Positions 9,695 to 32,396 of a stretch of 64,000 nt of DNA are shown piece by piece. A program made the position numbers and the translations under genes. The notes under the pieces were generated by a model. It searched no databases. It saw nothing but the letters and a program-made list of their open reading frames with translations, and was not told the origin of the DNA. Source of the stretch: Bacteroidota bacterium (GTDB taxonomy: Bacteria > Bacteroidota > Bacteroidia > Bacteroidales > FEN-979); contig JBAXRP010000001.1 of the NCBI GenBank assembly GCA_037131145.1, positions 2,587 to 66,586 on the forward strand, read 5' to 3'. Position 1 is the stretch's first letter; every line of letters starts with the position of its first letter.

Positions 9695-9820
9695 AGCTAT
9701 TCCGGCTGTTTGAATGAGATGTGGCTGCTATTTCGTAATTTTGTACCTGATACCATGAAGAATTCGATCTCTTTTTACTTTCCACAAAGTATAGTCAAAT
9801 TTGAAAAAGCCATCATATAA

Positions 9821-12800
9821 ATGAAGAATAAAAACCAGGAACTCATAGAAAAACTTGATTTGTTTATTAAAAAATACTACAAAAACCGACTGATCAGAGG
9901 TTTTTTATGGTCTGTGACTCTAACGACTGTATTATTTCTGGTGATCATCATGCTCGAAAATGTTTTCAATTTTGAACCGATTGTCCGTACAGGATTGTTT
10001 TTTACTTATTCTGCTCTCTTATTGTTTGTATTAACACGGTTAGTTTTTATTCCGTGCTTTCAGTTACTAAAAATTGGAAAACTTATTACTTATCAGCAAG
10101 CTGCTGAGATTGTCGGCAGCCATTTCAACGATATTCAAGATAAATTATTGAATACCTTACAGCTTATTGGGCAAAATAAAGAATCTGGCGAAAATTCAGA
10201 CCTTGTCATTGCAAGTATTGAACAGAAAACCAGGTCATTGAATCTTTTTAAGTTTACCCTTGCAATAGATTTCAGGAAAAATTTCAAGTATCTCAGATTT
10301 GCAGGTGTTCCGGTAATAATTATTTTGGTTCTTATATTACTTTCTCCTCGTACCATTTCAGATCCCACAAGTCGAATAATACGTTTCAACGAAACATTTA
10401 CAAAACCACTCCCCTACACTATTGAAATCCTAAATATAAAACTGGACGCTTTACAACAGGAAGATTTTGAATTACGCGTGAAAATCATTGGTGACGAAAT
10501 TCCTTCTGAAGTCTTTATTAAAACCGGTGATGTCATATATAAAATGCTGAGAACAAAAGATTTTAATTATACATTTAAATTCAAATCTTTGCAATCAAAC
10601 ATAAATTTCAAAATTGTTACTGGTGATTTACAATCAGCAACATATACAATTATTGTTCTTCCTAAACCAATAATTCTGAACTTTGATCTTTTAATTAATT
10701 ACCCGGAATATACCGGTAAAAAATGTGAAAAGTTTGAAAACCAAGGAGATGTTGTTGTACCTGAAGGAACCAAGATTACCTGGAATTTCTTTACAAAAGA
10801 TGTAGAGGAGATTTTAATGAGATTTTCCTCTGAAATTATTCTAAAGAAAACAAAATCAGCAAATAAATTCACTTTTTCTGGTTCGCCCATGACAAACTGC
10901 ACATATAGCATTAAACCTGTTAACTCCCGTGTTTTTTTTTCTGATTCATTACTTTATAGATTGATGGTAATTAATGACGGGTATCCCTCAATTTTCGTTG
11001 TTGAATCTACAGATTCAGTACTTTTTACAAAATTATTCTTCAATGGCACAATTAAAGATGATTACGGGTTTTCAAAGCTTACATTTAATTATAAAATTTA
11101 TAATCAAAAGGATACAACTGGTAATTATACGATAAGCGAAATTCCTGTCGAAAAAAAACTAAATAATCAGGTTTTTTATTATTCAATTGATCTCGTTTCA
11201 CTGTTAACGGATCCCGGAAAGAAAATTATCTACTATTTCGAAATAAGGGATAATGACCAAATACATGGACCAAAAGCTACACGTACTGAACCACATATAA
11301 TTGCAACTCCTACCTTGGAAGAAATTTCAACAAAAACCGAACAAAATGCTCAGTATATCAATGATGAACTTGAAAAAAGTATCTCTGGTTCAAAATCTAT
11401 AATAAAAACTTTAGACGAGTTAAATAAGCAATTGGTTGACCAAAATAGCATTTCATGGCAGGATAAGAAAAAAATGGAAGATTTGATAAAAAGCAGTGAA
11501 GCTATTCAAAAACGGATTGATGACATTAAGAAAAAGGCTTTAGAGAACATGAGCAGCGAGGAGAAATACCTTGAAACCAGTGACCGAATCATTGAAAAAC
11601 AAAAAATGCTGAATGAAATGATTGATCAGATTTTTCCTGAAGAATTAAAAAAAATGATTGAAGAGTTAAAAGGTCTAATGAATAAAGTAGATAAAGAGAA
11701 ACTTGGAAATCTTTTGGAAAAAATGAAAATGAGCAATAAAGAACTTGAAAATCAACTTGACAGGGACCTCGCTTTGATGAAGCAAATTGAGTTTGACAGA
11801 AATCTTGAAGAAACAATAAAAGAACTTAGAAAAACATCTGAAGAACTTGAAAAGCTTGCTGAAAAAGCTGAAACACCGGTTAATAACCTTGATAAATTAC
11901 TTGAAAAACAGAACGAGATTAATGAAAAATCAGATTCTCTATCGGCTAAAGTAGAACAACTTCAAAAAGACGCAAGGAATCTTGAAGAACCTGTTGAGCT
12001 TGGAAATACAGAGAAATTACAGGATAGCATTCGGAAAAATCTTTCGAAAAGTAAAAAAAGTCTTGAAGACAAAGACAAGAATAAAGCCGCCGGTTTACAA
12101 AAGAAAGCTGCCGGAAACATGAAAGAACTGGCACAGCAAATGGAATCGGCTAATGAAGAATCGGAAGAAGATCAACTTGAAGAGGATGCTCTGAATATTC
12201 GCATGATTCTACAAAATCTTGTACGGTTGTCTTTCAACCAGGAAGAACTTATCAGACAAACAAAACCAATTTCAAAGACTGATCCTCGATATCTTGAAAT
12301 TGTTGTCAAACAAAAAGAGTTCGGCGATAAAATGAAAATTGTGGAAGATTCTTTAAATGCAATAGCCAAACGTCAGTTAATGATTAAGCCGGTTATTACA
12401 AAAGAAATAATGTCAATAAACCAAAATATTGACTTGGCTCTTGAATCCTTTGAAGCAAGAAACATTGGCGCAGTAGTAACACGGCAACAGTTTGCGATGA
12501 CTTCCATAAACAATCTTGCATTATTGCTCAATGAATCATTGCAGAAGATGAATGAGAAGTTATCAAGCAGTATGAAGTCGAAAAGTGGCAATAAATCATG
12601 TTCAAATCCTTCATCAGGAAAAAGCGGAAAAAAATCAGCAAAGGAGATGAAAGATATTCAGGGAAAAATTGGTGATCAATTAAAAAAATTAAAAGAAGGA
12701 CTTGAAGGATCCAAGAAGCCAGGAAATTCCAATAAATCCGAACAACAGGGCATGAACCGGGAAATTGCAAAACTTGCCGCACAACAGGAGACCCTTAGAA

Positions 12801-13177
12801 ATGAAATGCAAAAGTATCAGGAAAAATTTGGCTCAAAAGGCATTACAGATCAGACCGGATTGAATGAAACCATACGTGATATGGAACAAATTGAAAAGGA
12901 TTTAATTAACAAAAAAATAACTCAAGAAACAATTCGAAGGCAGCAAAGCATTATTACGCGTTTACTTGAATCTGAAAAAGCCGAGCAAACCAGAGACAGA
13001 GAAGAAAAGAGGGAGTCGATTGAAGCAAAAGATCAAAAAATAAGTAACCTTAGTAAACCTTTTGAGTATAATATAAATAAAAGAGCCAGTCATGATCAAA
13101 TTGAATTAATACTGCCATCGTTACGCTCTTTTTATAAAAACAAAGTGAATAGCTACATTGTTAAAATAGAACAATAA
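9821..13177 (+). CDS. large membrane-anchored coiled-coil protein (DUF4175-like)
   Basis: 1118 aa. The N-terminus (KLDLFIKKYYKNRLIRGFLWS) is followed by TM helices. The C-terminal half is a long E/K/Q-rich heptad-like region. Confidence 0.6.
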   Translation: MKNKNQELIEKLDLFIKKYYKNRLIRGFLWSVTLTTVLFLVIIMLENVFNFEPIVRTGLFFTYSALLLFVLTRLVFIPCFQLLKIGKLITYQQAAEIVGSHFNDIQDKLLNTLQLIGQNKESGENSDLVIASIEQKTRSLNLFKFTLAIDFRKNFKYLRFAGVPVIIILVLILLSPRTISDPTSRIIRFNETFTKPLPYTIEILNIKLDALQQEDFELRVKIIGDEIPSEVFIKTGDVIYKMLRTKDFNYTFKFKSLQSNINFKIVTGDLQSATYTIIVLPKPIILNFDLLINYPEYTGKKCEKFENQGDVVVPEGTKITWNFFTKDVEEILMRFSSEIILKKTKSANKFTFSGSPMTNCTYSIKPVNSRVFFSDSLLYRLMVINDGYPSIFVVESTDSVLFTKLFFNGTIKDDYGFSKLTFNYKIYNQKDTTGNYTISEIPVEKKLNNQVFYYSIDLVSLLTDPGKKIIYYFEIRDNDQIHGPKATRTEPHIIATPTLEEISTKTEQNAQYINDELEKSISGSKSIIKTLDELNKQLVDQNSISWQDKKKMEDLIKSSEAIQKRIDDIKKKALENMSSEEKYLETSDRIIEKQKMLNEMIDQIFPEELKKMIEELKGLMNKVDKEKLGNLLEKMKMSNKELENQLDRDLALMKQIEFDRNLEETIKELRKTSEELEKLAEKAETPVNNLDKLLEKQNEINEKSDSLSAKVEQLQKDARNLEEPVELGNTEKLQDSIRKNLSKSKKSLEDKDKNKAAGLQKKAAGNMKELAQQMESANEESEEDQLEEDALNIRMILQNLVRLSFNQEELIRQTKPISKTDPRYLEIVVKQKEFGDKMKIVEDSLNAIAKRQLMIKPVITKEIMSINQNIDLALESFEARNIGAVVTRQQFAMTSINNLALLLNESLQKMNEKLSSSMKSKSGNKSCSNPSSGKSGKKSAKEMKDIQGKIGDQLKKLKEGLEGSKKPGNSNKSEQQGMNREIAKLAAQQETLRNEMQKYQEKFGSKGITDQTGLNETIRDMEQIEKDLINKKITQETIRRQQSIITRLLESEKAEQTRDREEKRESIEAKDQKISNLSKPFEYNINKRASHDQIELILPSLRSFYKNKVNSYIVKIEQ

Positions 13178-13178
13178 A

Positions 13179-13664
13179 ATGAAATATTCCCTTGAAAAGT
13201 TGTTAATTCACGGCAAAAAGGAAAGTTATCGTCTCGAAAGGTTTGTTGAAGAAATCTGTGATTTCCATAATATCACAAATGAATTCTTCGGAAATATTCA
13301 ACTTGCAACTTCTGAAGCTGCTGAAGTTCTATTTTCGATTGGTTCCGACGAGGTATCGGATTGTCTGAATGTTTTCTTTGAGAAAAGTCTCAAAGGTCTT
13401 ATATTCAAAATAAACCTGGTTGGATATAGAAATGATATCATTGTTGATGAGGATTTGCTTGACAGGGAAATACGGAAACACCAATTGGGACGGGAACTTT
13501 ATATTATTAAATCACTTACCGATGAGTTTAGGATAAATGCAGATGGAACGGGAATCCAACTGATTTTTTATGTATCAAGTATAAATTTTGAGAAATCATT
13601 GCAACGAATTCAACATTTAAAAACTTTCTGGGAAAAGGAAAAGAACGTAATGCACGAAAATTAA
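13179..13664 (+). CDS. hypothetical protein
   Basis: 161 aa. It starts 2 nt after the previous stop, and its stop overlaps the ybeY ATG (TAATG). No motif was recognised with confidence. Confidence 0.55.
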   Translation: MKYSLEKLLIHGKKESYRLERFVEEICDFHNITNEFFGNIQLATSEAAEVLFSIGSDEVSDCLNVFFEKSLKGLIFKINLVGYRNDIIVDEDLLDREIRKHQLGRELYIIKSLTDEFRINADGTGIQLIFYVSSINFEKSLQRIQHLKTFWEKEKNVMHEN

Positions 13665-14110
13665 TGATACAAATTCATTTTTTTACAGAAGATATTAAAT
13701 ATAGGACGCGGAACACAGTCCAACTGCGAAGATGGCTTTGCACTGCAGTGAAAATGGAAAGAAAAAAAGTTAAAAATGTCAATATAATCCTATGTTCAGA
13801 TGCTTTATTGCTCGAACTTAATAAGAAACATTTAAAACGTAATTCATTAACAGATATTCTTACTTTTCCTTTGTCCGAAATAGAAGGTTTTATTTCAGGT
13901 GATATTTTTATCAGTGTTGAAAGAGTTCGGGTTAACGGAATAATATTCAAACAAAAATTGGAAGTAGAATTACGAAGAGTTATTATTCATGGTATTTTGC
14001 ATCTGATTGGATACAATGATATTGACCATGATGATAAGGAAAAAATGAGAAACAAAGAAAATATTTACCTTAATTTATACGATGAAATATTTCCTATAAA
14101 GACTATCTGA
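13664..14110 (+). CDS. ybeY: rRNA maturation endoribonuclease YbeY
   Basis: 148 aa with the metal-binding motif HGILHLIGYNDIDH. Confidence 0.9.
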   Translation: MIQIHFFTEDIKYRTRNTVQLRRWLCTAVKMERKKVKNVNIILCSDALLLELNKKHLKRNSLTDILTFPLSEIEGFISGDIFISVERVRVNGIIFKQKLEVELRRVIIHGILHLIGYNDIDHDDKEKMRNKENIYLNLYDEIFPIKTI

Positions 14111-14133
14111 TAATTATATATTTCTTCGTAAAA

Positions 14134-14149
14134 TGTTTCACGTGAAACA
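14134..14149. other. parS (ParB-binding centromere-like site), perfect palindrome TGTTTCACGTGAAACA
   Basis: 16/16 match to the tGTTNCACGTGAAACa consensus. It lies in the ybeY-mnmG intergenic gap. Confidence 0.8.
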
Positions 14150-14156
14150 ATAGATT

Positions 14157-16028
14157 TTGAAAAATAGTTACGATGTAATTGTTGTTGGCGCTGGTCATGC
14201 AGGTTGTGAAGCAGCTTCTGCTGCTGCAACACTAGGATCCAAAGTTTTGTTGATTACCATGAATATGATGAACATGGCACAAATGTCATGCAATCCTTCT
14301 ATTGGAGGAATTGCCAAAGGACAGATTGTTCGGGAAATTGACGCATTAGGAGGATTTACTGGAATTGTTACAGACAGAACCATGATTCAATTCCGAATGC
14401 TGAACAAATCAAAGGGTCCAGCGATGTGGAGTCCCCGCTCCCAAAATGATCGGATAAAATTTTCACAGGAATGGAGGCGAATTTTGGAAACAAACTCTAA
14501 TGTAGATTTCTGGCAGGATTTTGTTTTCGATCTAATTCTTAAAAATGGAAAAATTATTGGAGTTAAAACAGGAATGGGACTCAAATTTGAATCCCGGTCA
14601 GTTGTTTTAGCAAACGGAACGTTTCTTAATGGCATGATATACATTGGGGAAAAGAAGTTTTCAGGGGGTAGAATCGGCGAACGATCATCAATGAATCTTT
14701 CTGATAATATATTAAAATCAGGTTTTGTCTCAAACAGAATGAAAACCGGAACACCTGCTCGGGTGGATGGAAGATCCCTGGATTTCTCTAAAATGGAAGA
14801 ACAACCTGGAGATGAAAACCCTGGTAAGTTTTCCTTTTCTGAAACCCCTCCATTAAAAACTCAGCGAAGTTGTTTTCTTACTTATACAAATGAGGAAGTA
14901 CACGACATTTTAAGAACCGGATTTGATCGCTCCCCTATGTATTCAGGAAGAATTATTGGTCGAGGTCCGAGATATTGTCCTTCCATTGAAGACAAAATTG
15001 ATCGGTTTGCTTCCCGAAACAGGCATCAGTTATTTATTGAACCGGAAGGCTGGAATACCGTTGAATTCTATGTTAATGGATTTTCTTCCTCCTTGCCTGA
15101 AGATATACAGTTTAAAGCCCTAATGAAAGTTAAAGGATTTGAAAAAGCAAAGTTTTTCCGTCCTGGTTATGCAATAGAATACGATTATTTTCCACCAGAA
15201 CAGTTATATTCAAATTTAGAAACAAAAATAATTGAAAACCTTTTTTTTGCAGGCCAAATTAATGGAACAACTGGTTATGAGGAGGCTTCTGCGCAAGGTC
15301 TAATTGCTGGCATAAATGCTCATTTGAAGGTTAATAATCAAAAGCCATTAGTTCTTAAACGTTCTGAAGCATATATTGGTGTACTAATAGATGATCTAAT
15401 TACAAAAGGTACCGAAGAACCATACAGAATGTTCACCTCCAGAGCGGAATACAGATTACTTCTTAGACAAGATAATGCCGACCAACGTTTAACCGGTATT
15501 GCTCATGAACTTGGTCTTGTTTCACATGACCGACTCAGAGGTGTTTCTGAAAAATACGAAAAAGTAAATCATTTGACCAGATTTCTTAAAAACCAGACTC
15601 TTAAACCAGAGGATATTAATTCTATTCTTCTTGAAAACAATTCTGCTCCAACTACACAGAAACAAAAAGCTGCGAATTTTCTTCTCAGACCTCATGTTTT
15701 CCTAAATGATTTGATTTCAAAAATTGATATACTAAAATCATATTTAGAAGAGCACTGCCTGGATAATTTCGAGATTATCAACGAGGCAGAATTAGTAATA
15801 AAATACGAAAGTTATATCGAAAAAGAACAAATGCTTGCTGACAAAATGGCTAATCTTGAAAATCTTTTCATCCCAAATAATTTTAATTTCAATAAAATTA
15901 CCTCATTATCCATCGAAGCCAGAGAAAAACTTACAAAGATTAAACCTTCTTCAATAGGACAGGCAACAAGGATTAGCGGTGTATCTCCTGCTGATATTTC
16001 GGTGCTTATTGTCTTCCTTGGAAGATAA
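14157..16028 (+). CDS. mnmG: tRNA uridine 5-carboxymethylaminomethyl modification enzyme MnmG (GidA)
   Basis: 623 aa with a TTG start, the FAD motif YDVIVVGAGHAGCEAA, and a conserved GidA body and C-terminal helical domain. Confidence 0.93.
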   Translation: MKNSYDVIVVGAGHAGCEAASAAATLGSKVLLITMNMMNMAQMSCNPSIGGIAKGQIVREIDALGGFTGIVTDRTMIQFRMLNKSKGPAMWSPRSQNDRIKFSQEWRRILETNSNVDFWQDFVFDLILKNGKIIGVKTGMGLKFESRSVVLANGTFLNGMIYIGEKKFSGGRIGERSSMNLSDNILKSGFVSNRMKTGTPARVDGRSLDFSKMEEQPGDENPGKFSFSETPPLKTQRSCFLTYTNEEVHDILRTGFDRSPMYSGRIIGRGPRYCPSIEDKIDRFASRNRHQLFIEPEGWNTVEFYVNGFSSSLPEDIQFKALMKVKGFEKAKFFRPGYAIEYDYFPPEQLYSNLETKIIENLFFAGQINGTTGYEEASAQGLIAGINAHLKVNNQKPLVLKRSEAYIGVLIDDLITKGTEEPYRMFTSRAEYRLLLRQDNADQRLTGIAHELGLVSHDRLRGVSEKYEKVNHLTRFLKNQTLKPEDINSILLENNSAPTTQKQKAANFLLRPHVFLNDLISKIDILKSYLEEHCLDNFEIINEAELVIKYESYIEKEQMLADKMANLENLFIPNNFNFNKITSLSIEAREKLTKIKPSSIGQATRISGVSPADISVLIVFLGR

Positions 16029-16044
16029 TGTTCCACGTGAAACA
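16029..16044. other. parS site TGTTCCACGTGAAACA
   Basis: Identical to the canonical Bacillus-type parS 16-mer. It begins immediately after the mnmG stop codon. Confidence 0.8.
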
Positions 16045-16051
16045 TTTTTTT

Positions 16052-16942
16052 ATGACTGAACTATTATCAATTTGCCCCATTTGCCAACTAACTAATTTTA
16101 ACCTTTTTCTTTCCATTAAAGATCATTTTCTTTCAAAGGAAATATTTCATATCATGCAATGTTCCTCCTGTGGGTTTAGGTTTGTAAATCCCAGACCTAA
16201 TACCTCTGATATGAAGCATTATTACCAATCTGAATCTTACATTTCTCATGATGCTTCAAAAAGTGATTTGCTTAGCCAAATTTATAAGCTTGCCAGAAAT
16301 ATTTCTCTTCGAAATAAATATTATCTTGTCCGACAGTATTGTGAAACAGGGCCAATCCTTGATTTTGGTTGTGGTACCGGTGAATTTCTTGCTTATTGCA
16401 AAAAAAAAAGACATCAGGTAGTAGGGATTGAACCCAATGATAAAGCGAGAGATTTTGCAATAAATCAACAAAAATTAGCCGTTTTTACCGATCTTAATTC
16501 TCTTGGAGTAAACTTGCGAACTTTTGATTGCATTACTTTGTGGCATGTTTTAGAACATGTTCATGACCTGGATCAAACACTTACTAAAATTAATACCCTA
16601 CTTTCTACTAAAGGAACTTTGATTATTGCAGTTCCAAATTGCAATTCCCCGGACGCACGCAAATATAAAACATTTTGGGCCGCTTATGATGTTCCTCGAC
16701 ACCTCTATCATTTTACAGTCGAATCATTTACCAGATTAGCTGCTCGTCATCATTTTATTGTGGAAAAAATTCTTCCACAAAAACTTGACGCTTATTATGT
16801 TTCAATGCTTAGTGAAAAATACCAAAATGGAAAAAACAAATATTTTTGTTCATTACTTAATGGGTTTCGCTCCAATTTCCTTGCAAAGAAAGACAATATG
16901 GGTTATTCCAGCCAGATTTTCATCCTCCACAGGATAACTTGA
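16052..16942 (+). CDS. class I SAM-dependent methyltransferase with an N-terminal Cys4 zinc-ribbon-like segment
   Basis: SAM motif I (ILDFGCGTGEFL) plus CPIC...CSSC. The track start at 16028 would place parS inside the coding sequence, so ATG 16052 (MTELLSICPIC) is preferred. The start remains uncertain. Confidence 0.75.
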   Translation: MTELLSICPICQLTNFNLFLSIKDHFLSKEIFHIMQCSSCGFRFVNPRPNTSDMKHYYQSESYISHDASKSDLLSQIYKLARNISLRNKYYLVRQYCETGPILDFGCGTGEFLAYCKKKRHQVVGIEPNDKARDFAINQQKLAVFTDLNSLGVNLRTFDCITLWHVLEHVHDLDQTLTKINTLLSTKGTLIIAVPNCNSPDARKYKTFWAAYDVPRHLYHFTVESFTRLAARHHFIVEKILPQKLDAYYVSMLSEKYQNGKNKYFCSLLNGFRSNFLAKKDNMGYSSQIFILHRIT

Positions 16943-17060
16943 CTATTTTAAGCCCCCTAATGCATTCTAAGTTCATTCTAAGCAAACCTGCCATCTTGTT
17001 TGAAATAAACGTTTATATGCAATCTTATACAGTGATAATATTTCTCAACCTATCTGAACA

Positions 17061-20000
17061 TTGACCAAATTTAAAATAGAAATATTTAGATTCCAAAAAT
17101 TTCAACCCCTTATAGTTGCCGGGATTATTTTTTTGATGATACCTTTTACAGATTGGTGTATCAACAGGATAAATATTCCAGAAAATATTTTATTGGTTTT
17201 CAACCAGAAAATTATTATTGAAGAGAAAGCTCTTACGGTTTTCGTCGAGACTATTTCAACAAACATTGACCCCAACACTCTATCCAATGCAACAGGAGAT
17301 TCTATTTACAAATTAATAAATCACGAAAAACCGAAAATATCCTTATTCATTTTCAGAAACGATTCTTTAATATTTTGGAACAGTAACAGGGAAATTTTTC
17401 CAACAGATTTAGTAAAATCATCAGAAACTGGTTTTCAGATACTCCACCTTCAAAATGGGTGGTATAGCGTTTACACAAAAACGATTGTATCCTGTAAGTT
17501 TATAGCCTTCGCCTTAATAAAGAATGAGTATCCGATCACCAATTCCTATTTGAAGAATTGCTTTTCTGAACAATTTTCATTGCCAGAAAATGTATCATTA
17601 TCTGTAAAAACAACAGCTTATCCGGTTTTTTCAGCTAATAATAAATATCTTGTCAGCTTGGTATTACCTCCTCAACTCTTTTATAAACTGCGTATTCCCG
17701 AATCTTTTCAACTCTCAAATAATTTTTCTATAGTTTGGTATTTTGTATTATTCCTTCTTGGAACCTGTTTTCTTCTACTATTTATCTACCGTATATTCCT
17801 GAGTTTAAACTACTTTAAAATTCGTAAAATTCAGTTTTTGCTTTCTATTTCGTCTATCGTACTCGTTTTACGCATTATTCAGTTCTATTTACAATTTCCC
17901 GAACATTTGTATCAAACCGAAATATTTAGTCCCGCTTTATACTCTTCTTCCTTTATTCTCCCATCCCTTGGCGATTTTTTTTTTAATTCACTGCTCATCT
18001 TTTATATAACCTGGATAATAGGCAAAGTAAATTCTGTTAATCAAAGTAAAACATTTGATACTAAAGTCATGTTTATCGAATACCAAGTCTTATTAGTTGT
18101 TTTATTTAGCCTTTTTGCTATTCTCGAATTTCTCATTACCGACCTAATTATCAATTCCTCATTTTCACTGAATTTCCAGAATATCTCAGATCTGACCCCG
18201 ATAAGCATATTCGGATTACTCATCCTCGCTTTGTTGTCGGGTGCCTTTTTGATTATTTCTAACCAATTATTGGACAAGATTTTCTCAATTTCCTCAAAAA
18301 TCGAATGGCTAATTTTCGGGTTGATTGTCTCTTCTATTCTATATGGAATTACATGCAAGGCTACATCTATTAAGATAAATTATGCTATAATTTTGTTTTT
18401 TTTTGTTAACGCTGTCTTTTATTGGTATTTAAAATCAATGCAAATTCCGAAGTATTCAATCCAACACATACTTTTCTTGTTATTATTTTATTCTATACTT
18501 GCAACGTTTCTTTTAAATCGGGCAAATACTCTCAAAGAAAACAACAAAGTGAACTTGCTCGCGCTTAACCTTATATCCAAACAAAATCCTGTTACTGAAG
18601 ACCGATATTATCAGATTGCGGGAAAACTAAGATCTGACTCGATATTGAAAAGGATGCTTCTTTCTGAAAACTCACATGAGTATTATTCTGATAGTCTTGA
18701 TATCTATTTAAAAACACGCTATTTTAAAGATTACTGGCGCATGTATAATATTCAGATCACTTTGTGCAAACCTAGGCAGGAACTTCGTGTGGAACCCAAG
18801 CAATACCTTATTGATTGCAACCTTTTTTTTCAAAATCTGATCATCAATTACGGTGAAACAACTTCGACGCCAGGTCTGTATTATCTTGATAATGGATATG
18901 GAAAAGAATACTACCTCGCATTTTTGAATTTTTTGGAATCAAACGCAATTACCAAAAATCAAGCACAGTTATATATCGAGTTTACGATAACTGGCACAAT
19001 CCCTGATCCAGGATACCCTGGATTATTGCTCGATAAGGGTCGCAAGGATCCCACTCTACGTTCAAATTACACTTATGCATTTTATCAGCAAGGTCGCTTG
19101 GTTCATGTTGTTGGTAACGCTAATTATTTGTTTGAATTAGCAACCTACCCGCACTATTCCAGCGTCAGTCCATATTTTTATGATAATGATCTCAAACATT
19201 TTCACTTCAAGATTAATGAGGATTGCGACTTGCTGATCAGCAAAACAAGGAATGGTTTTTTTTCGGAAATCACGCCTTTTTCTTACCTTTTCTTCCTCTA
19301 TTCCTTCATGGCGCTTATTATCACTGGGTTTAATATGGTGCAAAAAGGAATCTATTCCAAACCTGTTGACCTGCGTACTAAATTGCAAATATCTTTAACG
19401 AGCCTTCTTATTCTTACCATGGTCATCATTGGGATAGTACAGATTATATATATTATCAATATTAATGAAAAGAAAAACATTGATTTTTTACGAGAAAAAG
19501 CATTTTCAGTGCTAACTGAGTTTCAGCACAAATTCGGCGGGGCTGGGGTTGCTTCCGACGTTATCAACAGGAAAAATGAAAATTTTCTTATTAAGCTTTC
19601 AAATATTTTCTTTTGTGATATAAATTTTTATAATGTGCGGGGATTCTTAATTTCTTCTAGTCGCCATGAAATATTCCATGCAGGGCTGATCTCGGAACGA
19701 ATCAACCCTTTTGCCTATCAGAAAATGATCATTGAACACAATTCAATTCTTATCCAGGAGGAAGTAATCGGAAATATGAAATTCGGTTCTGTATATCTTC
19801 CTATGCACAACGATCAGGGTAATTTACTGGGATATATTAATTTGCCATATTTTTCTCGACTAGATGATTTAAAAAAGGAGATTTCCTCTTTTCTCGTAAC
19901 TTTTGTCAATATTTATATTCTTATAATTTTATCAGGCGCTCTGATTTCATTTTTACTTGCCAATTATATAACCTCCCCGTTGGCCTTACTTTCAACGAAA

Positions 20001-20837
20001 ATGTCGCTACTACGACTTGGAAAACCGAATGAGAAAATTTTATGGAAAAACAACGATGAAATAGGACGTTTGGTGGCTGATTACAACAGGATGGTTGATG
20101 CACTTGATAACAGTGCAAATCAATTAGCTCTAAAGGAACGAGAAAGCGCCTGGCGGGAAATGGCGAGACAAGTAGCTCACGAAATTAAAAATCCGTTAAC
20201 ACCCATGAAACTGAGCGCCCAGTATCTTCAGAAATCATGGATTGAACATGCGCCAGATATGGGGCAACGGATTGCTCGTTTTACCAAAACCCTTGTAGAA
20301 CAGATAGATACTCTTTCAACCATTGCCTCCGATTTTTCAGGTTTTGCTAAAATGACTCCCCCAATATTTGAGCGATTCGATATTGTTGAAGTTATTAACA
20401 CGGTATTAGCATTGTATCCCGAATCTACCAATATCAGATATGTTTTTGAATCAGAAAATAACGCCTCAGAAATTCTTTCTGATCGTTTTCAATTTATACG
20501 TGTTTTGACAAATCTAATCAACAATGCAGTTCAGGCAATTGGTTCCCGAAAGGATGGATTAATCCGAATAATTCTGCATGAAACCTCTTATCACCTAATT
20601 ATTAAGGTTTCAGATAATGGGATCGGCATTCCCGCCGACCGGGCATCAAATATATTTCAACCCGATTTTACTACAAAAACTGGAGGGATGGGATTGGGAC
20701 TTGCCATTGTAAAGGGTATAATCTTGGATCTGAGGGGTGAAATTTCTTTTACTTCCATTGAAAACACAGGCACGAATTTTACTATAAGCCTTCCTAAAAA
20801 TATAAAAAATAACGATGGCAAATCCATTCAGAACTAA
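17061..20837 (+). CDS. sensor histidine kinase with a very large polytopic N-terminal region (NtrY-like H-box)
   Basis: 1258 aa with a TTG start and many hydrophobic helices across the first ~950 aa. A HAMP-like linker is followed by the H-box HEIKNPLTPM and the HATPase N/G boxes (NLINNAVQA, DNGIGI, GGMGLGL). Confidence 0.85.
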   Translation: MTKFKIEIFRFQKFQPLIVAGIIFLMIPFTDWCINRINIPENILLVFNQKIIIEEKALTVFVETISTNIDPNTLSNATGDSIYKLINHEKPKISLFIFRNDSLIFWNSNREIFPTDLVKSSETGFQILHLQNGWYSVYTKTIVSCKFIAFALIKNEYPITNSYLKNCFSEQFSLPENVSLSVKTTAYPVFSANNKYLVSLVLPPQLFYKLRIPESFQLSNNFSIVWYFVLFLLGTCFLLLFIYRIFLSLNYFKIRKIQFLLSISSIVLVLRIIQFYLQFPEHLYQTEIFSPALYSSSFILPSLGDFFFNSLLIFYITWIIGKVNSVNQSKTFDTKVMFIEYQVLLVVLFSLFAILEFLITDLIINSSFSLNFQNISDLTPISIFGLLILALLSGAFLIISNQLLDKIFSISSKIEWLIFGLIVSSILYGITCKATSIKINYAIILFFFVNAVFYWYLKSMQIPKYSIQHILFLLLFYSILATFLLNRANTLKENNKVNLLALNLISKQNPVTEDRYYQIAGKLRSDSILKRMLLSENSHEYYSDSLDIYLKTRYFKDYWRMYNIQITLCKPRQELRVEPKQYLIDCNLFFQNLIINYGETTSTPGLYYLDNGYGKEYYLAFLNFLESNAITKNQAQLYIEFTITGTIPDPGYPGLLLDKGRKDPTLRSNYTYAFYQQGRLVHVVGNANYLFELATYPHYSSVSPYFYDNDLKHFHFKINEDCDLLISKTRNGFFSEITPFSYLFFLYSFMALIITGFNMVQKGIYSKPVDLRTKLQISLTSLLILTMVIIGIVQIIYIININEKKNIDFLREKAFSVLTEFQHKFGGAGVASDVINRKNENFLIKLSNIFFCDINFYNVRGFLISSSRHEIFHAGLISERINPFAYQKMIIEHNSILIQEEVIGNMKFGSVYLPMHNDQGNLLGYINLPYFSRLDDLKKEISSFLVTFVNIYILIILSGALISFLLANYITSPLALLSTKMSLLRLGKPNEKILWKNNDEIGRLVADYNRMVDALDNSANQLALKERESAWREMARQVAHEIKNPLTPMKLSAQYLQKSWIEHAPDMGQRIARFTKTLVEQIDTLSTIASDFSGFAKMTPPIFERFDIVEVINTVLALYPESTNIRYVFESENNASEILSDRFQFIRVLTNLINNAVQAIGSRKDGLIRIILHETSYHLIIKVSDNGIGIPADRASNIFQPDFTTKTGGMGLGLAIVKGIILDLRGEISFTSIENTGTNFTISLPKNIKNNDGKSIQN

Positions 20838-21303
20838 AAGAGTATTTATCTTTGTTTATATCTTATTTTTAATGCTTAACCAAGCTTGCATCCGGGAAAA
20901 ACCAACTGAATTATATCATAAATTTCCCGGAAACCAATGGGATAGATTTAACTTTTTGAGTTTTGAAATTCCGATTGAAAAATCAAATGAAACTTATGAC
21001 ATTCTTTTGCTATTCAGTTTCACACCCGAATATCCATACGAGACACTTTTTTTTAACATGGACTTGAAAACGCCATCGGGGGAGGAGCGAATCAATGAAT
21101 ATCAGTTGAAAATAAAAACTAAAGACGGAAAATTTCTTGGTGAAGTTAAGGGTGATTCCTGTCAGCTTTCCATTACCTTGAAGCGGTATTTAAAAATTAC
21201 AAAACCAGGCATTCTAAAGATTGAACTCGAAAATCTGATCCCACGTATGACAACACAAGGGATATCAGGAGTTGTAATCAGTATAATGCATTCAGGCAAG
21301 TAG
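20815..21303 (+). CDS. gldH: GldH-like gliding-motility lipoprotein
   Basis: 162 aa with a signal peptide and lipobox (LNQAC). The W..F.F, YDI....F..EYPYE.LFF and TPSGE pattern resembles GldH. It overlaps the kinase stop by 23 nt. Confidence 0.55.
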   Translation: MANPFRTKRVFIFVYILFLMLNQACIREKPTELYHKFPGNQWDRFNFLSFEIPIEKSNETYDILLLFSFTPEYPYETLFFNMDLKTPSGEERINEYQLKIKTKDGKFLGEVKGDSCQLSITLKRYLKITKPGILKIELENLIPRMTTQGISGVVISIMHSGK

Positions 21304-21744
21304 ATATAACGCCTTTCGTTTATCCTCACGAATTTGAAATGCGAGTTCATCAAGATTCTTGAACTTTATTTCGGCACGTATTCTGTCAATAAATTTAACG
21401 ACCAGGGTTTTTCCATATAGATCCTCGGAAAAATCGAATATATGAATTTCCACTCTCATTGTTTTTCCATCAACAGTTGGTCGAATTCCAGCGTTCGCAA
21501 TTCCTTTCAAAACACGCATTTCGACTACAGTATTAACAGCATAAACTCCATAAGGTGGTAAAAATAGATTGTTATCATCTAGTTCAAGATTGGCAGTTGG
21601 AAAACCCAACTTCCTACCCAAATGATTTCCATGAACCACGATACCTGTAATCGAATAAATATCTCCAGTAAGTTGAATAAATAGCCGCATGTTTCCCTCT
21701 GCAAGAGCGACTTTTGCTATCTCTGAAAACTTCTCAGGATTCAT
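21292..21744 (-). CDS. monofunctional riboflavin kinase (RibF C-terminal domain only)
   Basis: 150 aa with GRKLGFPTANL, YGVYAV and HIFDFSEDLYGK motifs. There is no FAD-synthetase domain. It starts 5 nt after the upstream gene. Confidence 0.85.
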   Translation of the reverse strand: MNPEKFSEIAKVALAEGNMRLFIQLTGDIYSITGIVVHGNHLGRKLGFPTANLELDDNNLFLPPYGVYAVNTVVEMRVLKGIANAGIRPTVDGKTMRVEIHIFDFSEDLYGKTLVVKFIDRIRAEIKFKNLDELAFQIREDKRKALYLLA

Positions 21745-21749
21745 CCACG

Positions 21750-22675: not shown

Positions 22676-23995
22676 TCAAACCAATATATCATCCTTTTTT
22701 GCTTCTTCCCGCAAACCAGTTACTGGTACAATGGGTACAAACTTTGAGGCAAGCGTAAATAGAAGGCAGAACACGGCAACTCCCGCAGCATTCAAGCTCC
22801 ATTCCACCCAAGTAGCCGTATAATTTAACCACTCAGGCCTTGCATCCTGTATGGGGAGATACGGCGACTCAAGTGTAGGCACCACAATAATATAACGATT
22901 CAACCAAAGAGCTATAACGACAACAATTGAAGTAAGCGTGATATTAGTTATCGTTCTGAATTTTGGTATTCCTACCACGATCAGCGGTAACAGCACACCA
23001 ATATAATTGGAGATAATAAAGGGCCAGTAGAATTCTTTAAAAAGCAACTGAATAAGTAATTCGTCATTTTTTTCCGACCCATACCATTTCGTCAGGTAAT
23101 CGCTAAAAGTAAAATATCCAAAAAATGCGGCAAGCACAAGCATTATTACCCCAACAGCAACGAAGTGTTTTTTTGTAATGTATTCCTCAAGATGATAAAC
23201 CTTTCTAAAAATCCACATTGTGATTATCAGTACTGCGCTTCCCGAATATACAGCCGCAATTACAAAGTAAGGGCCAAAAATAGTACTGTGCCAACCAGGT
23301 TGCAGTGTAACGCTAAAAATCCACGCCAATACAGAATAAACGATAATAGCTATGGAAATTACCATCGCAGCCATAATATCTGTTGCACTGTTGAGACGCT
23401 GCTGTTGTTCCGGGGTGCCGGTATAACCCAATGCAAGGGCTTTATAAAGGCGTTTTCTCCACATAGGAAGTCGTAGGAAGTCATCATCACGAAGTGTTGC
23501 CAGATCGCGTAATAAGGCAAGATAAAGAAAAATGAAACACCCAAAAATATCGGTTGAAATGGCAATTACGTCCCATGTAATTGGTGATTGAATACGTCCA
23601 AAAATTACAAGATAATAAAGTTTATCAAGTCTTCCAATGCAAAGAAGAATAAAGCAAGGGCCGATTAAAAGTGAAATTACAGTGATAAATTCTGCCATTC
23701 TGATAACCGGTTTGCGCCAGGGTGTTTTGAATAAGTGGAGTGTGCCAGAAATCAAAGCGCCAGCGTAACTGATTCCCATAAAAAAAATGAAGTTGACGAT
23801 ATAAACACCCCAAACAACATTATCGCGCATACCTGTTACTTCATGTCCTTTTATAACCTGTTGTAGAAAAGCATAAATTCCAAGACCGATCACGGCAAGC
23901 AGGAATACAATCCAGGCATATCCTACAAAACTAGTTTGCTCAAGTTGCGGCGCAAATTCTCTTAATGGACTTTTTTTTTCGTTTTCCATATTCAC
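22676..23995 (-). CDS. NrfD/PsrC-family polytopic quinone-interacting membrane subunit
   Basis: 439 aa with about 10 TM helices. The N-terminal signature (GHEVTGMRDNVVWGVYIVNFIFFMGISYAG) is typical of NrfD. ATGA overlap with the upstream gene. Confidence 0.8.
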   Translation of the reverse strand: MNMENEKKSPLREFAPQLEQTSFVGYAWIVFLLAVIGLGIYAFLQQVIKGHEVTGMRDNVVWGVYIVNFIFFMGISYAGALISGTLHLFKTPWRKPVIRMAEFITVISLLIGPCFILLCIGRLDKLYYLVIFGRIQSPITWDVIAISTDIFGCFIFLYLALLRDLATLRDDDFLRLPMWRKRLYKALALGYTGTPEQQQRLNSATDIMAAMVISIAIIVYSVLAWIFSVTLQPGWHSTIFGPYFVIAAVYSGSAVLIITMWIFRKVYHLEEYITKKHFVAVGVIMLVLAAFFGYFTFSDYLTKWYGSEKNDELLIQLLFKEFYWPFIISNYIGVLLPLIVVGIPKFRTITNITLTSIVVVIALWLNRYIIVVPTLESPYLPIQDARPEWLNYTATWVEWSLNAAGVAVFCLLFTLASKFVPIVPVTGLREEAKKDDILV

Positions 23996-24954
23996 GGCTT
24001 ATTTTTTTTACTGTATGGTGTATCCTTATATCTGCTTTTTACCTCATCAGTCAAATCCGGAAAACCACGATCAACGGGAAACTGACGATCAACGGGTGGT
24101 AGGTAATAAACACAAGGCCTTGTACCAAGAGTTTCAAGGTATCTGTATCCAGCCCGGTCACGGATTAACTGGCTGAACTGATATGTTTCAGTTCCATTGG
24201 TTACAGTATCTTCATCCACATCCCCAAAATATATTACGCCCATCGGGCAGGCGGAAACGCAATATGGCACTTTGCCAACCCGTATCAGGTCGGGACAAAA
24301 ATCGCATTTAGAAACAGTGCCCTCCTTTCCAGGGCTGCTCGCTTCCGGTGAATAGGGCTCTTTATCTTCATCAAACTCGTGATAATGTTTCCATGCAAAA
24401 ACACGGGTTGAATATGGGCAACCTGTCATGCAGAATTTGCATCCAATGCAACGTTCATTATCGATCAATACAATTCCATCGCTTCGTTTATATGTGGCGC
24501 CAACCGGGCAAACACTCACGCACAAAGGGTTGTCGCAGTGAAAGCAGGGTTTTGGAAACCAGTACGGAGAAGTTTTTTCAGAATCCTGTAACAAGTACAC
24601 CTTCAAAAACTCCTGACTTTTTGGAAGATGATGCCCTTTCTGGCAGGCCTCTACGCATTTCCTGGCATTTTTGCATTTACCAAGATCAATAACCATGACA
24701 AATTTTCGTCCTGGAAGTCCTTTATGGGATTCTTCGCGTGATACCCTCGGCAGTTTAAGAAGGCCTCTATCCACTTCCATAATTTCTCCTTCAGTGGTGA
24801 GGACTTTTACCTTCTTTCCGGATTCGGTTGCATTCGCGTCAACGTATGCTGCAACCAATCCACTACCGGCTGCTATTCCGGCTCCAGCCAGTAGCCCTTT
24901 TTTCAAAAACTGTCTTCTGGTATTTTTTTTATTCTGATTAGTATGCTCTTCCAC
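23992..24954 (-). CDS. Tat-exported 4Fe-4S ferredoxin-type subunit (NrfC/PsrB/DmsB-like)
   Basis: 320 aa with the twin-arginine leader TRRQFLKKGLLAGAG. Four Cys clusters: CKNARKCVEAC, CFHCDNPLCVSVCP, CIGCKFCMTGCP, CDFC...CVSACP. Confidence 0.85.
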   Translation of the reverse strand: MEEHTNQNKKNTRRQFLKKGLLAGAGIAAGSGLVAAYVDANATESGKKVKVLTTEGEIMEVDRGLLKLPRVSREESHKGLPGRKFVMVIDLGKCKNARKCVEACQKGHHLPKSQEFLKVYLLQDSEKTSPYWFPKPCFHCDNPLCVSVCPVGATYKRSDGIVLIDNERCIGCKFCMTGCPYSTRVFAWKHYHEFDEDKEPYSPEASSPGKEGTVSKCDFCPDLIRVGKVPYCVSACPMGVIYFGDVDEDTVTNGTETYQFSQLIRDRAGYRYLETLGTRPCVYYLPPVDRQFPVDRGFPDLTDEVKSRYKDTPYSKKNKP

Positions 24955-24965
24955 GTTTCTGGGTT

Positions 24966-25589
24966 TTAATGTGACTCATGATAACCATTGATCATGCTTT
25001 TAAAATTACTTGTCGGATTTTTTCCGATAGTGCAAAAATATATGTGAACACACATGATTAGACTAATGCCAAAGCCAGAAATAATATGCACAAAATCGGT
25101 CAGATCCAATCCGCTGAAACCGAAAATACTGTTAACGGTGATTTCCGGATACAACAGACCGAATCCGGAAATAATTACAAATGGCACCAGAACATACATC
25201 AGAACAACATAGGTAACTTGTTGTAACGGATTAAATTTTTCTTCCTCATTAACCGGAAAAGGGGCTTGTTCATTTTTGAAAATTCCTATTGTATAAAAAT
25301 ATAGTTGTTTTTTCAGCCTGTCAAATGTATTTTTCAGCGGAATTACATAATGACCGCCGTTTTTCGTGAAAAGATTCCCGAAAAAGAAAACAATGTAACT
25401 TAATGAAAGCAGCATCCCCGCAATATTATGCAAAGTAACAGCCATATTAAATTTAACAATTGTTGAAGGATTTGAAAACTGGATACTTAAACCTGTAATA
25501 ATTAAAATCAAACAAAGTAGTGCATTTGTCAAGTGCCAAATCCTGATCCAAACAGGATACAAATAAAGGCGTTGGGAGCTATGATTCAT
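24966..25589 (-). CDS. membrane di-haem cytochrome b-like subunit (PhsC / Ni-Fe hydrogenase cytochrome b family-like)
   Basis: 207 aa with 4 predicted TM helices and conserved-looking His residues (WIRIWHLTNA, TLHNIAG, FVHIISG, CVHIYF). Confidence 0.6.
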   Translation of the reverse strand: MNHSSQRLYLYPVWIRIWHLTNALLCLILIITGLSIQFSNPSTIVKFNMAVTLHNIAGMLLSLSYIVFFFGNLFTKNGGHYVIPLKNTFDRLKKQLYFYTIGIFKNEQAPFPVNEEEKFNPLQQVTYVVLMYVLVPFVIISGFGLLYPEITVNSIFGFSGLDLTDFVHIISGFGISLIMCVHIYFCTIGKNPTSNFKSMINGYHESH

Positions 25590-26616
25590 GTGGATGATTA
25601 TTTTTAATGCGCAAAACTGCGTGGATAATTATTACGAGAATGGTTAGTCCAAAAATAATCAGACTAATTATATTTAAGGTGTTACTTTGATCTGGTCCAA
25701 TAGTGGTGGAATTTCCCATTAGCAAACCTTTAATAAAACCTTCTTTCTGAATTTGCGAACTCACCTGGTATTTATATAAGGAGGCGTAAAGAATAGAATT
25801 CTGTGAATGGCAGGATTCACACTTTCTGACCGCCAGGCTCTTAGGTACAACATGATGGGCAACAACCAAAGTATCCTCATTTTTGGCATGACATTCAATA
25901 CATCTAACATTTGTAAAATGAGAGGCCTGATTTGGCAGCCATTCATGTTTTTGAAGGATATTTGGATTTACTTTGTCGGTAAGTAACTGATAATTTTTTA
26001 TATCTGCATGACAGTTCAGGCATATAAGGTTATCATAAGTAATAGTTTCTTTAAGGATATTGGTATTACGCGCATTGATTTTGTAGGTATGTGCATCATG
26101 ACACATCCAGCATGTAAAATCTTCGCTATGTTTCTCGGAATGGACACTGGCCATAAAGCCTGTATCAATTTGTTCAAATTGAAATTTTGCGTATTTCTCA
26201 TCTCCACCATGACAGTCAATACAAGTGGCAATTGCTTCCATGCGAAGGTTGCCGTTATGGGGGAAAGTACCATAATCTTCGGAATGACAATCGGTACATT
26301 TAAACTCGCGGTGGTTGGACGAGTAAAAAAGTTCGCGGTTGATTATAACTTCTGAATACATCCGTTTGGAAACATTTCTATTTGCTTCTTTATTTTGATA
26401 TGTATATTTTGACTGACCGTGACATTTGAAGCAGTTTTCGTTTTCGATATAATTTTTAAATTTCGTAAAATCAGTCTTTGCCTGTTGTTCTTTTTCGGTT
26501 TGAGTTGTAATAATAGGCTTTGAATCAGATGTTTTTAAAAGGATAAGGGCAATGGCGCACAAAAGCAACATCATAAGAACGAGCCAGGCCGGGCGTAAAT
26601 TTGCTTTATAAATCAT
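25579..26616 (-). CDS. membrane-anchored heptahaem cytochrome c
   Basis: 345 aa with seven CxxCH motifs (CFKCH, CTDCH, CIDCH, CWMCH, CLNCH, CIECH, CESCH). It has both an N-terminal hydrophobic anchor and a C-terminal TM helix. Confidence 0.85.
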   Translation of the reverse strand: MIYKANLRPAWLVLMMLLLCAIALILLKTSDSKPIITTQTEKEQQAKTDFTKFKNYIENENCFKCHGQSKYTYQNKEANRNVSKRMYSEVIINRELFYSSNHREFKCTDCHSEDYGTFPHNGNLRMEAIATCIDCHGGDEKYAKFQFEQIDTGFMASVHSEKHSEDFTCWMCHDAHTYKINARNTNILKETITYDNLICLNCHADIKNYQLLTDKVNPNILQKHEWLPNQASHFTNVRCIECHAKNEDTLVVAHHVVPKSLAVRKCESCHSQNSILYASLYKYQVSSQIQKEGFIKGLLMGNSTTIGPDQSNTLNIISLIIFGLTILVIIIHAVLRIKNNHPHES

Positions 26617-26649
26617 AGTATCTTAAAAGTAAGTATGAGGGATTGCATT

Positions 26650-26697
26650 GCAAAACAAATGGGTGTAAACAGGAAATTATCTGTTTTACACCCATTT
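26650..26697 (-). terminator. terminator hairpin after the 138-aa cytochrome c gene
   Basis: A 16-17 bp stem with one bulge: aaatgggtgtaaacag (26657-26672) pairs with ctgttttacacccattt (26681-26697). A short U-rich tract follows on the minus strand. Confidence 0.6.
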
Positions 26698-26725
26698 GGT
26701 TAATCATATTAGAACCGGTATGCAG

Positions 26726-27142
26726 TTATTTCTTGAAAGTGCGCATGTAGGCAACCAACGACCAACGATCGTTTGCATCGGGAATTTTCTTTTCGTAGGC
26801 AGGCATTTCATCTCGGCCTTTATCAGTGCGGAAGAAAAGTTCGCCATCAGTGGATCCCTGGAAAGCTGCTGAAGAGAAATCTCCCGGAAAAGTTTTTAGG
26901 GAAGCGCCCTTTGGTCCATCACCCAACCCTTTGCTGCCATGGCACGATTTACAATGTTTTGCCCAAAGTTCCTTCCCGGTAGCTACATCAGCTTTTGCTG
27001 AGGCTTTCAGAGCCTTGTCTTTATCGGGAACAGGCCATGCCTTTGCTTTGGCTTGTTGTGCTGAAGCAGCCTGACCAAACAGAAAAACAACAGCAACGAT
27101 AGCTGTTACGATGATTGTTGCAATTTTTTGAGATGTTTTCAT
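26726..27142 (-). CDS. periplasmic monohaem class I cytochrome c
   Basis: 138 aa with a signal peptide ending ASA-QQ, a single CKSCHG motif and a distal Met (DEMPAY). Confidence 0.85.
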   Translation of the reverse strand: MKTSQKIATIIVTAIVAVVFLFGQAASAQQAKAKAWPVPDKDKALKASAKADVATGKELWAKHCKSCHGSKGLGDGPKGASLKTFPGDFSSAAFQGSTDGELFFRTDKGRDEMPAYEKKIPDANDRWSLVAYMRTFKK

Positions 27143-27186
27143 AATTTTTAATTGTTAGTTATTTGACATTTTGTTTTGGTTTTGGA

Positions 27187-28254
27187 TTAAAAGGTCCATA
27201 ACCGGGTTATATTAAATCCAAGAAGAATAGCGCCATTATATGGATTATTGTTATTATACATAACTGTTTCCTGGGGAAGAAGTCCATTTGCTGCTGTTAA
27301 AAAAATCTGGAAAGCATGGGTACTTGTTGAAATTTCCACGCCAAGACCAAAATTGGGCCACGGGGCAGTATTGACATAAGTAAATACAGGTTGAGAGTAA
27401 CTTAAAATGATTGAAGCCTGCGGACTTATCTTCACTTTTCCTATACCTGAGATATTGATATTATCGTTTTTCATTCCATTTACATGGTTATTGTCTGCTT
27501 CTGCTTGATCAACCAGATTATAATGTACCCATGAAATCCCCAATTGTGCTGAAAATTCTTTACAAAATCTACGTGCAAACATAAATTCAGCAAAATATGA
27601 AAACCTGTAAGAAGCTTTAAAGGTTTGGTCAAAAAGATTTCCCAGATCAGACTGATTAGCTCCATTTAATCCTGTTGCCTGGTTGTATGTAATATAGTTC
27701 AGTCCAGAGTTTGTATCATTTTCAATTATCTGATTTTGAATACTTCTCCGAAACGCTGTATCCTTAACTAAGGAATTGTAATCAAGATCAGATAGTAGTT
27801 TATTATTTCCAAGCGATGACTTGTTACTGGCATTGATCGCTACATTTCCGAAAAAACTAATGGTGACAGGAAAACCATCTTTTCTCTGGCGGGCAATTAC
27901 ATATTTAATGTTGAAATCCTGGAGCATTTTTAGCTTAGTGGTTCCAAACCCCACCTGTAGATTTTTTGTTATTGTAAAATTAAGCCCGAGACGGATGTTT
28001 GAAGCGCCCCAAATACCATACAGGTCAGACCAGTGTTGTTGTATCGTTCCAAAGTCATGCTGGATAACAGCTTCAAGGGTTCTTGCAGGGGGCAGAAAAA
28101 CTGTTCGGTCTGCCATAAAATAACCGCTTTCAAATGGAGCTTTTGCCAATGGTTTCTGGGTTGGTTGTTCAGGGATCGAATCCTGCGCAAAACCCATTCC
28201 AAGACCGCTCATCATGAAGATGAAACCCAGCGCTAATCGTTTCATTTTATCCAT
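27187..28254 (-). CDS. putative outer-membrane beta-barrel protein (DUF5777-like)
   Basis: 355 aa with a signal peptide (GMGFAQD), alternating hydrophobic beta-strand patterns and a C-terminal aromatic beta-signal (ITRLWTF). The family name is from memory and unverified. Confidence 0.55.
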   Translation of the reverse strand: MDKMKRLALGFIFMMSGLGMGFAQDSIPEQPTQKPLAKAPFESGYFMADRTVFLPPARTLEAVIQHDFGTIQQHWSDLYGIWGASNIRLGLNFTITKNLQVGFGTTKLKMLQDFNIKYVIARQRKDGFPVTISFFGNVAINASNKSSLGNNKLLSDLDYNSLVKDTAFRRSIQNQIIENDTNSGLNYITYNQATGLNGANQSDLGNLFDQTFKASYRFSYFAEFMFARRFCKEFSAQLGISWVHYNLVDQAEADNNHVNGMKNDNINISGIGKVKISPQASIILSYSQPVFTYVNTAPWPNFGLGVEISTSTHAFQIFLTAANGLLPQETVMYNNNNPYNGAILLGFNITRLWTF

Positions 28255-32280: not shown

Positions 32281-32396
32281 GCGGGGTCGAGTTTTGGCAA
32301 AGATACTGAAATGGCGAAATGACGAAATGGTAAAAAAAGTTATTAACAGTGGTTTTACTTTTGGGGTTTTTGGGGATTAAACAGAAAAATGAAATC

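Follow-up and report, generated by a model that had tools for sequence, protein, structure and literature searches.

Two predicted parS sites abut the ends of mnmG in a Bacteroidota contig and recur at mnmG across the phylum

We analyzed a 64,000-nucleotide stretch of a Bacteroidota genome (assembly GCA_037131145.1, contig JBAXRP010000001.1, positions 2,587 to 66,586; hereafter the window), which is nearly the whole of a 65 kb metagenomic contig. The exact MnmG protein of the window turned up on one record only, a metagenome contig of 65,383 bp in ENA. Within the window, the tRNA-modification gene mnmG (gidA) is enclosed by two 16-mers, parS-1 (TGTTTCACGTGAAACA) and parS-2 (TGTTCCACGTGAAACA), that resemble the sites at which the partition protein ParB loads onto bacterial chromosomes. 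Judging from their sequence and conservation, we consider it probable (roughly 0.8) that both are functional ParB-loading sites and that they form the chromosome's partition complex around mnmG. The pair would represent a genuine but ordinary centromere of this chromosome, a kind of site that is already well known. Its placement flush with the ends of mnmG is conserved throughout the phylum and is not an oddity of this contig.

Both 16-mers lie where the initial annotation had located them, the first being a perfect palindrome as described there, and both fit the 16-bp inverted-repeat consensus tGTTNCACGTGAAACa perfectly. parS-1 corresponds to the fully palindromic consensus employed in genome scans (PMC10197239), and parS-2 is base for base the parS found inside Bacillus subtilis parB (PMC4333373), in agreement with the identity previously claimed for it. 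At up to two mismatches, these are the only parS-like 16-mers in the window: four strand-hits (two sites) were obtained against 0.17 expected, and none of 100 shuffled sequences reached four. Allowing a third mismatch adds just two matches, a gain at chance level. By a hand estimate, the chance expectation of a perfect match to 15 specified bases on both strands of 64 kb is ~1e-4. It is very unlikely that the sites are relics or chance palindromes without present function, such as might persist in a lineage devoid of ParAB. No ParB was observed on the contig, but both sites are perfect despite this low expected count, and 16-mers not under selection would decay, whereas the closest relatives retain the sites while the neighboring spacers diverge. 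In the closest of these (L002; 89% MnmG identity), parS-1 is identical at 16 of 16 bases and the adjoining spacer has diverged.

The placement of the sites was surveyed at 80 mnmG loci from species-representative genomes (75 Bacteroidota, 1 Chlorobiota and 4 from other phyla), each including up to 10 kb per side. Counts rest on the pattern TGTTYCACGTGRAACA with at most one mismatch, and a site within 150 bp was taken to lie at an mnmG end. A parS-like site accompanies at least one end of mnmG in 69 of 75 Bacteroidota loci, with upstream sites present in 53 of 73 loci and downstream sites in 51 of 74. No match falls inside mnmG (139 kb of orthologues), and the outer flanks contain 18 matches in 1.24 Mb, so that sites at mnmG ends are enriched ~300-fold over these flanks. 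Spacing is also constrained: the downstream site usually starts 0-10 nt past the stop codon, and the upstream site mostly ends 5-35 nt before the start codon, with about one-fifth ending at 45-121 nt. The profile of the collected sites agrees with tGTTNCACGTGAAACa: positions 3, 4, 6 and 13 are invariant, positions 7, 10, 11 and 14 are nearly so, and free variation is restricted to positions 5 and 12 (Y/R) and the outermost bases. This conservation at orthologous positions strongly supports the earlier prediction that canonical ParB-loading sites bracket mnmG.

The sites occupy fixed positions in a larger block of genes. The order gltX (minus strand), DUF4175, (hypothetical), ybeY, mnmG, methyltransferase, (histidine kinase) recurs in Bacteroidales, Flavobacteriales, Cytophagales and Chitinophagales loci, with the parS sites falling between ybeY and mnmG and between mnmG and the methyltransferase gene. 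A constant neighbor of the sites is the DUF4175 protein, encoded directly upstream of ybeY-mnmG across Bacteroidota; in the window (9821-13177) it has 1118 amino acids, with membrane segments at the N-terminus and a tail that forms a very long coiled coil rich in K and E. In the single Chlorobiota locus, mnmG is closely followed by two sites. Three outgroup loci (Verrucomicrobiae, Chlamydiae and one unclassified) contain no parS-like site. One Bacteroidetes metagenome-assembled genome (MAG; L035, 217-654) has an expanded parS array upstream of mnmG, with four perfect TGTTTCACGTGAAACA copies in ~530 bp.

Drawing on the established ParABS literature, we can outline how the sites would operate. 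ParB dimers would recognize each palindrome through their helix-turn-helix domains, bind cytidine triphosphate (CTP), close into a clamp and slide outwards. In this way mnmG (1.9 kb) and several kb on either side would become a ParB-coated partition complex, which ParA would then segregate. We speculate that ParB occupancy may also affect mnmG transcription, because many relatives have a TAnnTTTG box, the Bacteroidota -7 promoter element, 12-31 nt upstream of parS-1.

The last possibility leads to an alternative in which the palindromes are mainly operators controlling transcription of mnmG and the methyltransferase gene, recognized either by ParB in a regulatory capacity or by a different CACGTG-binding protein, and are not partition sites. 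Their tight, conserved placement at gene ends suggests a tie to the transcription unit; parS-1 is only 7 nt ahead of a start codon, and parS-2 occupies the mnmG-methyltransferase spacer. In 21 of 55 loci (background, 4.3%), an exact TAnnTTTG box ends no more than 80 nt ahead of the upstream parS, and in 17 of these the distance is 12-31 nt, so that parS would fall in the earliest transcribed region. In many relatives the box lies in the 3' end of ybeY. Moreover, ParB is reported to be a transcription regulator in Vibrio cholerae, and ParA/ParB loss to alter the transcriptome of Pseudomonas aeruginosa (PMC4010829, PMC3909081). However, the match to the universal ParB site extends over the full 16 bases and not just the CACGTG core, no alternative binding protein is known, and the window has no exact -7 box. 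Regulation and partition can also coexist. We therefore regard a mainly regulatory role as very unlikely, although the sites may serve as operators in addition to their predicted function in partition.

A further alternative, that the palindromes act as RNA or single-strand hairpins (a terminator, attenuator or processing signal around mnmG), is extremely unlikely. parS-1 can form a 6-bp hairpin of -3.9 kcal/mol, and a run of seven T residues follows parS-2 in the window and in L002. However, parS-2 does not fold (0 kcal/mol), the sites in their context fold no better than shuffled sequences (z -0.5 to -0.6), a terminator scan calls neither site, Rfam gives no match, and the T-run is confined to the window and L002. 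Asymmetry at positions 5/12 affects 47 of 124 sites, and in 34 of those C stands opposite A, breaking the stem without compensation. On these grounds we rejected an intrinsic terminator or other structured RNA.

Genes for partition and replication initiation were sought by tblastn using Soj, Spo0J, DnaA and RsmG as queries (the Spo0J query matches PDB 6SDK at 407 bits). None of the four has a match in the window or, in the 75 Bacteroidota loci, at any point up to 10 kb from mnmG. Across all 80 loci, matches to Soj, DnaA and RsmG are confined to the Firmicute outgroup locus (L080), and parA, parB, dnaA and dnaN are all missing from the genes of the 64 kb window. mnmG thus does not adjoin rsmG, parA, parB or dnaA here, the arrangement that characterizes the classical origin cluster, and the gidA-gidB-parAB-dnaA linkage is absent in these Bacteroidota loci. 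This undercuts the initial annotation's use of mnmG as an origin-linked gene, and its second hint, the presence of dnaG in the window, carries no weight as dnaG is not an origin marker. We infer that the classical gidA-gidB-parA-parB-dnaA cluster dissolved in Bacteroidota and that parS stayed with mnmG, not with parAB.

A broader proposal can be offered tentatively, as one we find possible but doubtful: parS-mnmG-parS may be an ancestral centromere cassette of Bacteroidota, and probably of Chlorobiota, that was kept after the gidA-gidB-parAB-dnaA cluster broke up. The cassette would mark the origin better than dnaA does, and the upstream parS would sit on the mnmG promoter or 5' leader, such that ParB loading and mnmG transcription may be coupled. 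The literature we searched holds no account of parS clamped on both ends of mnmG in Bacteroidota and uncoupled from parAB/dnaA; Livny et al. 2007, which possibly tabulates such sites, lay outside that search, so priority is uncertain.

Known systems share elements of this arrangement. The Firmicute outgroup locus (Anaerocolumna; mnmG-rsmG-(noc)-soj-spo0J) likewise has mnmG within 5 kb of three perfect parS sites, but these belong to the rsmG/soj region, 3.6-5 kb downstream of mnmG, with dnaA ~5 kb upstream of it; the Bacteroidota sites adjoin mnmG directly, and their partner genes are located elsewhere. In B. subtilis, soj-spo0J lies beside gidA-gidB and oriC, and most parS sites other than the one in parB are also intragenic. 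The consensus of its Spo0J(ParB)/parS system is TGTTCCACGTGAAACA, and one site, identical to parS-2, is inside the parB gene (PMC4333373), whereas both sites described here are intergenic and flush with the mnmG ends. By analogy, loading and spreading of ParB-CTP clamps would be expected here too. Unlike in B. subtilis, mnmG has no parAB, rsmG or dnaA close by: the 64 kb window lacks them, as do the flanks of up to 10 kb at the 75 Bacteroidota loci.

P. aeruginosa (gidA-gidB-parA-parB, parS1-4) similarly has gidA in the origin/partition neighborhood and a small parS cluster near the origin (PMC13438810). There, however, 10-20 kb separates the parS sites from parAB, and gidA is not bracketed by them; gidA shares a transcript with gidB-parAB and overlaps oriCII, a region of DnaA boxes. 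None of this applies here. A precedent from the same phylum and with the same consensus is a study of 12 gut bacteria that includes Bacteroides caecimuris and Muribaculum intestinale, both of which encode ParABS homologues (PMC10197239). In these 12 organisms, clusters of parS with the same consensus coincide with the origin (ori) as located by skew, coverage and Hi-C. Several sites share one 5-kb bin, placed where GC skew switches and on the secondary diagonal of the Hi-C map, and dnaA does not always mark ori (PMC10197239). In contrast to the present analysis, which adds the link to mnmG and its conservation in the phylum, the genes flanking the sites were not reported (PMC10197239).

The description of the sites as origin-proximal fared better than the reasons first given for it: gidA linkage and dnaG fail, and modest independent support comes from skew at third codon positions (GC3 skew), from pooled loci and from regions with DnaA boxes. 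Raw GC skew was replaced by third-position models because it tracks coding strand and amino-acid composition. Per-gene GC3 skew was fitted with two terms, one for the coding strand and one for the replication strand, the latter reversing sign at a change point. The fit has a single clean optimum at 24-26 kb, with the weighted residual sum of squares (RSS) falling from 99 to 66; a single-replichore model (RSS 96.7) explains almost nothing. The polarity is that of an origin, the plus strand being C-rich on the left and G-rich on the right, and the switch has a permutation p of 0.004 with all third positions and the change-point search included. A recent inversion is an unlikely source, because L002 and L003 retain the synteny across the switch, from mreC through cytb. 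From the position of the switch, the parS pair is probably ~8-12 kb from the replication origin.

Pooling the 75 Bacteroidota loci, with conserved syntenic genes excluded, reveals a switch of the same polarity across mnmG, with a replication term of -0.024 upstream and +0.029 downstream of mnmG (difference 0.053; bootstrap 95% confidence interval 0.015-0.086; P(diff<=0)=0.005). In addition, five Cytophagales loci each have an oriC-like, AT-rich spacer containing 3-7 DnaA boxes at a distance of 2.6-3.4 kb downstream from mnmG, always between the same two genes (~550 and ~620 amino-acid products) and with no dnaA nearby. The spacer of Flectobacillus (L007) contains seven DnaA boxes, four of them perfect, plus a TATATA tract. 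Psychroflexus, the one Flavobacteriales case, has five perfect DnaA boxes 8.3 kb downstream of mnmG. A nearby origin also accords with the parS clusters at ori in the gut-bacteria study cited above (PMC10197239). As a separate observation, the Flectobacillus locus holds 17 perfect TTATCCACA boxes in 21.8 kb, yet its mnmG has no adjoining parS.

Several findings weigh against a ParB-loading, origin-proximal pair. ParB and ParA genes are missing both from the window and from up to 10 kb on either side of mnmG at the 75 Bacteroidota loci, and a cognate ParB in this organism is assumed. A few Bacteroidota loci (L007, L025, L054 and L062) have no parS beside mnmG, the first of them despite its nearby oriC-like region. 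The skew switch is borderline when only four-fold degenerate sites are used (p=0.058) and falls in a conserved NrfD/ferredoxin/cytochrome operon, not in an AT-rich spacer; no recognizable oriC sequence or AT-rich oriC candidate was found at 23000..28000. The window contains neither a perfect DnaA box nor a box cluster, and its one-mismatch boxes number 24 against 19.6 expected. Finally, upstream of parS-1 the window offers only a one-mismatch -7 box (TATATTTC, 14117-14124).

We considered the spacer at 46206-46683 as an oriC candidate. It separates the divergent genes rpiB (minus strand) and nadA (plus strand), is the most AT-rich of the window (46526-46675, GC 0.12) and lies near the raw cumulative skew minimum. 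It was rejected, as the strand-corrected GC3 model has no switch there and its repeats are TGTTAATA, not DnaA boxes. Seven copies of TGTTAATA/TATTAACA occur in this spacer, including an 18-bp perfect palindrome, TATTAACAATTGTTAATA (46494-46511), and the window has 18 occurrences of the 8-mer where 3.2 would be expected. Among the copies outside the spacer are one immediately preceding glnS (5831), one immediately preceding the gene at 32349 (32341) and two close to the gene for a Crp-family regulator (30235, 30339). The repeat is probably the binding motif of some regulator.

The coordinates of the sites, the adjoining genes and the origin-related features are collected in the table.

Table. 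Features at and around the mnmG locus. Positions refer to the window unless a survey locus is named.
Feature	Position	Strand	Description and evidence
parS-1, TGTTTCACGTGAAACA	14134..14149	strandless	Perfect 16-bp palindrome; lies in the 46 bp between ybeY and mnmG, with 7 nt separating it from the mnmG TTG
parS-2, TGTTCCACGTGAAACA	16029..16044	strandless	Directly follows the mnmG TAA; 7 nt separate it from the methyltransferase ATG
mnmG (gidA)	14157..16028	+	Enclosed by both sites; TIGR00136 821 bits, Pfam GIDA 524 bits
ybeY	13664..14110	+	Conserved neighbor upstream of mnmG; profile searches, synteny
Class I S-adenosylmethionine (SAM) methyltransferase	16052..16942	+	Corrected start (MTELLSICPIC...); Pfam Methyltransf_23, homologue starts
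Origin-type GC3-skew switch	23000..28000 (approximate)	strandless	RSS minimum 24-26 kb
oriC-like spacers downstream of mnmG	L007 14875-15364; L049 14453-14697; L041 14410-14581; L034 14369-14617; L023 14619-15047; L046 20144-20586		

The palindromes also affect gene calling. TTG 14157 is the sole usable mnmG start because an in-frame TAG occupies 14151-14153, and it is from this start that parS-1 is 7 nt away; the mnmG stop is the TAA at 16026-16028. parS-2 generates open reading frame (ORF) starts on both strands, at 16028-16942 (plus, MFHVKH...) and 15812-16045 (minus, MFHVEH...), and these mirror-image starts are indeed artifacts of the palindrome, as the initial annotation had noticed. Its relocation of the methyltransferase start to 16052 (MTELLSICPIC) also proved sound. 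All homologues begin after parS, with a conserved N-terminus M-x-E-L-x-x-C-P-x-C, and L002 has no ATG overlapping the mnmG stop.

In Firmicutes and Proteobacteria, the slot after mnmG is occupied by rsmG (gidB). A Methyltransf_23 enzyme with an N-terminal CPxC is found downstream of mnmG in most Bacteroidota loci. The one in the window does not belong to the GidB family and has no specific NCBIfam match, and the PDB sequences that it matches are all generic class I methyltransferases. As the occupant of the RsmG slot, it could act as a functional analogue in rRNA or xm5U tRNA modification.

For this window, the outcome is routine annotation: it gains a pair of centromere sites, the methyltransferase start is corrected, and two ORFs can be dropped as spurious. 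More generally, a parS pair on mnmG offers a simple landmark for the centromere and the probable origin region in Bacteroidota genomes and MAGs, with uses in peak-to-trough estimates of replication rate, Hi-C interpretation and genome orientation. Such a landmark is of practical use because the Bacteroidota origin is reportedly not always at dnaA. The parS-mnmG-parS arrangement also provides a defined target for first ParB chromatin immunoprecipitation or mutagenesis work in Bacteroidota, and raises the question of whether ParB occupancy affects mnmG expression.

By profile searches, the gene content of the window includes purH, mreBC, glnS, gltX, the DUF4175 membrane/coiled-coil protein, ybeY, mnmG, the class I methyltransferase, a large histidine kinase, gldH, respiratory cytochrome genes, proteins with type IX secretion system (T9SS) tails and dnaG, with matches to GldH, CHU_C and Por_Secre_tail that identify it as Bacteroidota. 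The region around the parS sites from DUF4175 to the histidine kinase (9800-21000) has a markedly lower G+C content (0.31-0.36) than the remainder (0.37-0.50). At 21292-22658 (minus strand), a riboflavin kinase domain stands alone as a 150-amino-acid ORF (21292-21744), preceded by a 302-amino-acid ORF (21750-22658) that occupies the expected place of the flavin adenine dinucleotide (FAD) synthetase half of RibF and has no Pfam or NCBIfam match. Both ORFs are conserved in L002-L004.

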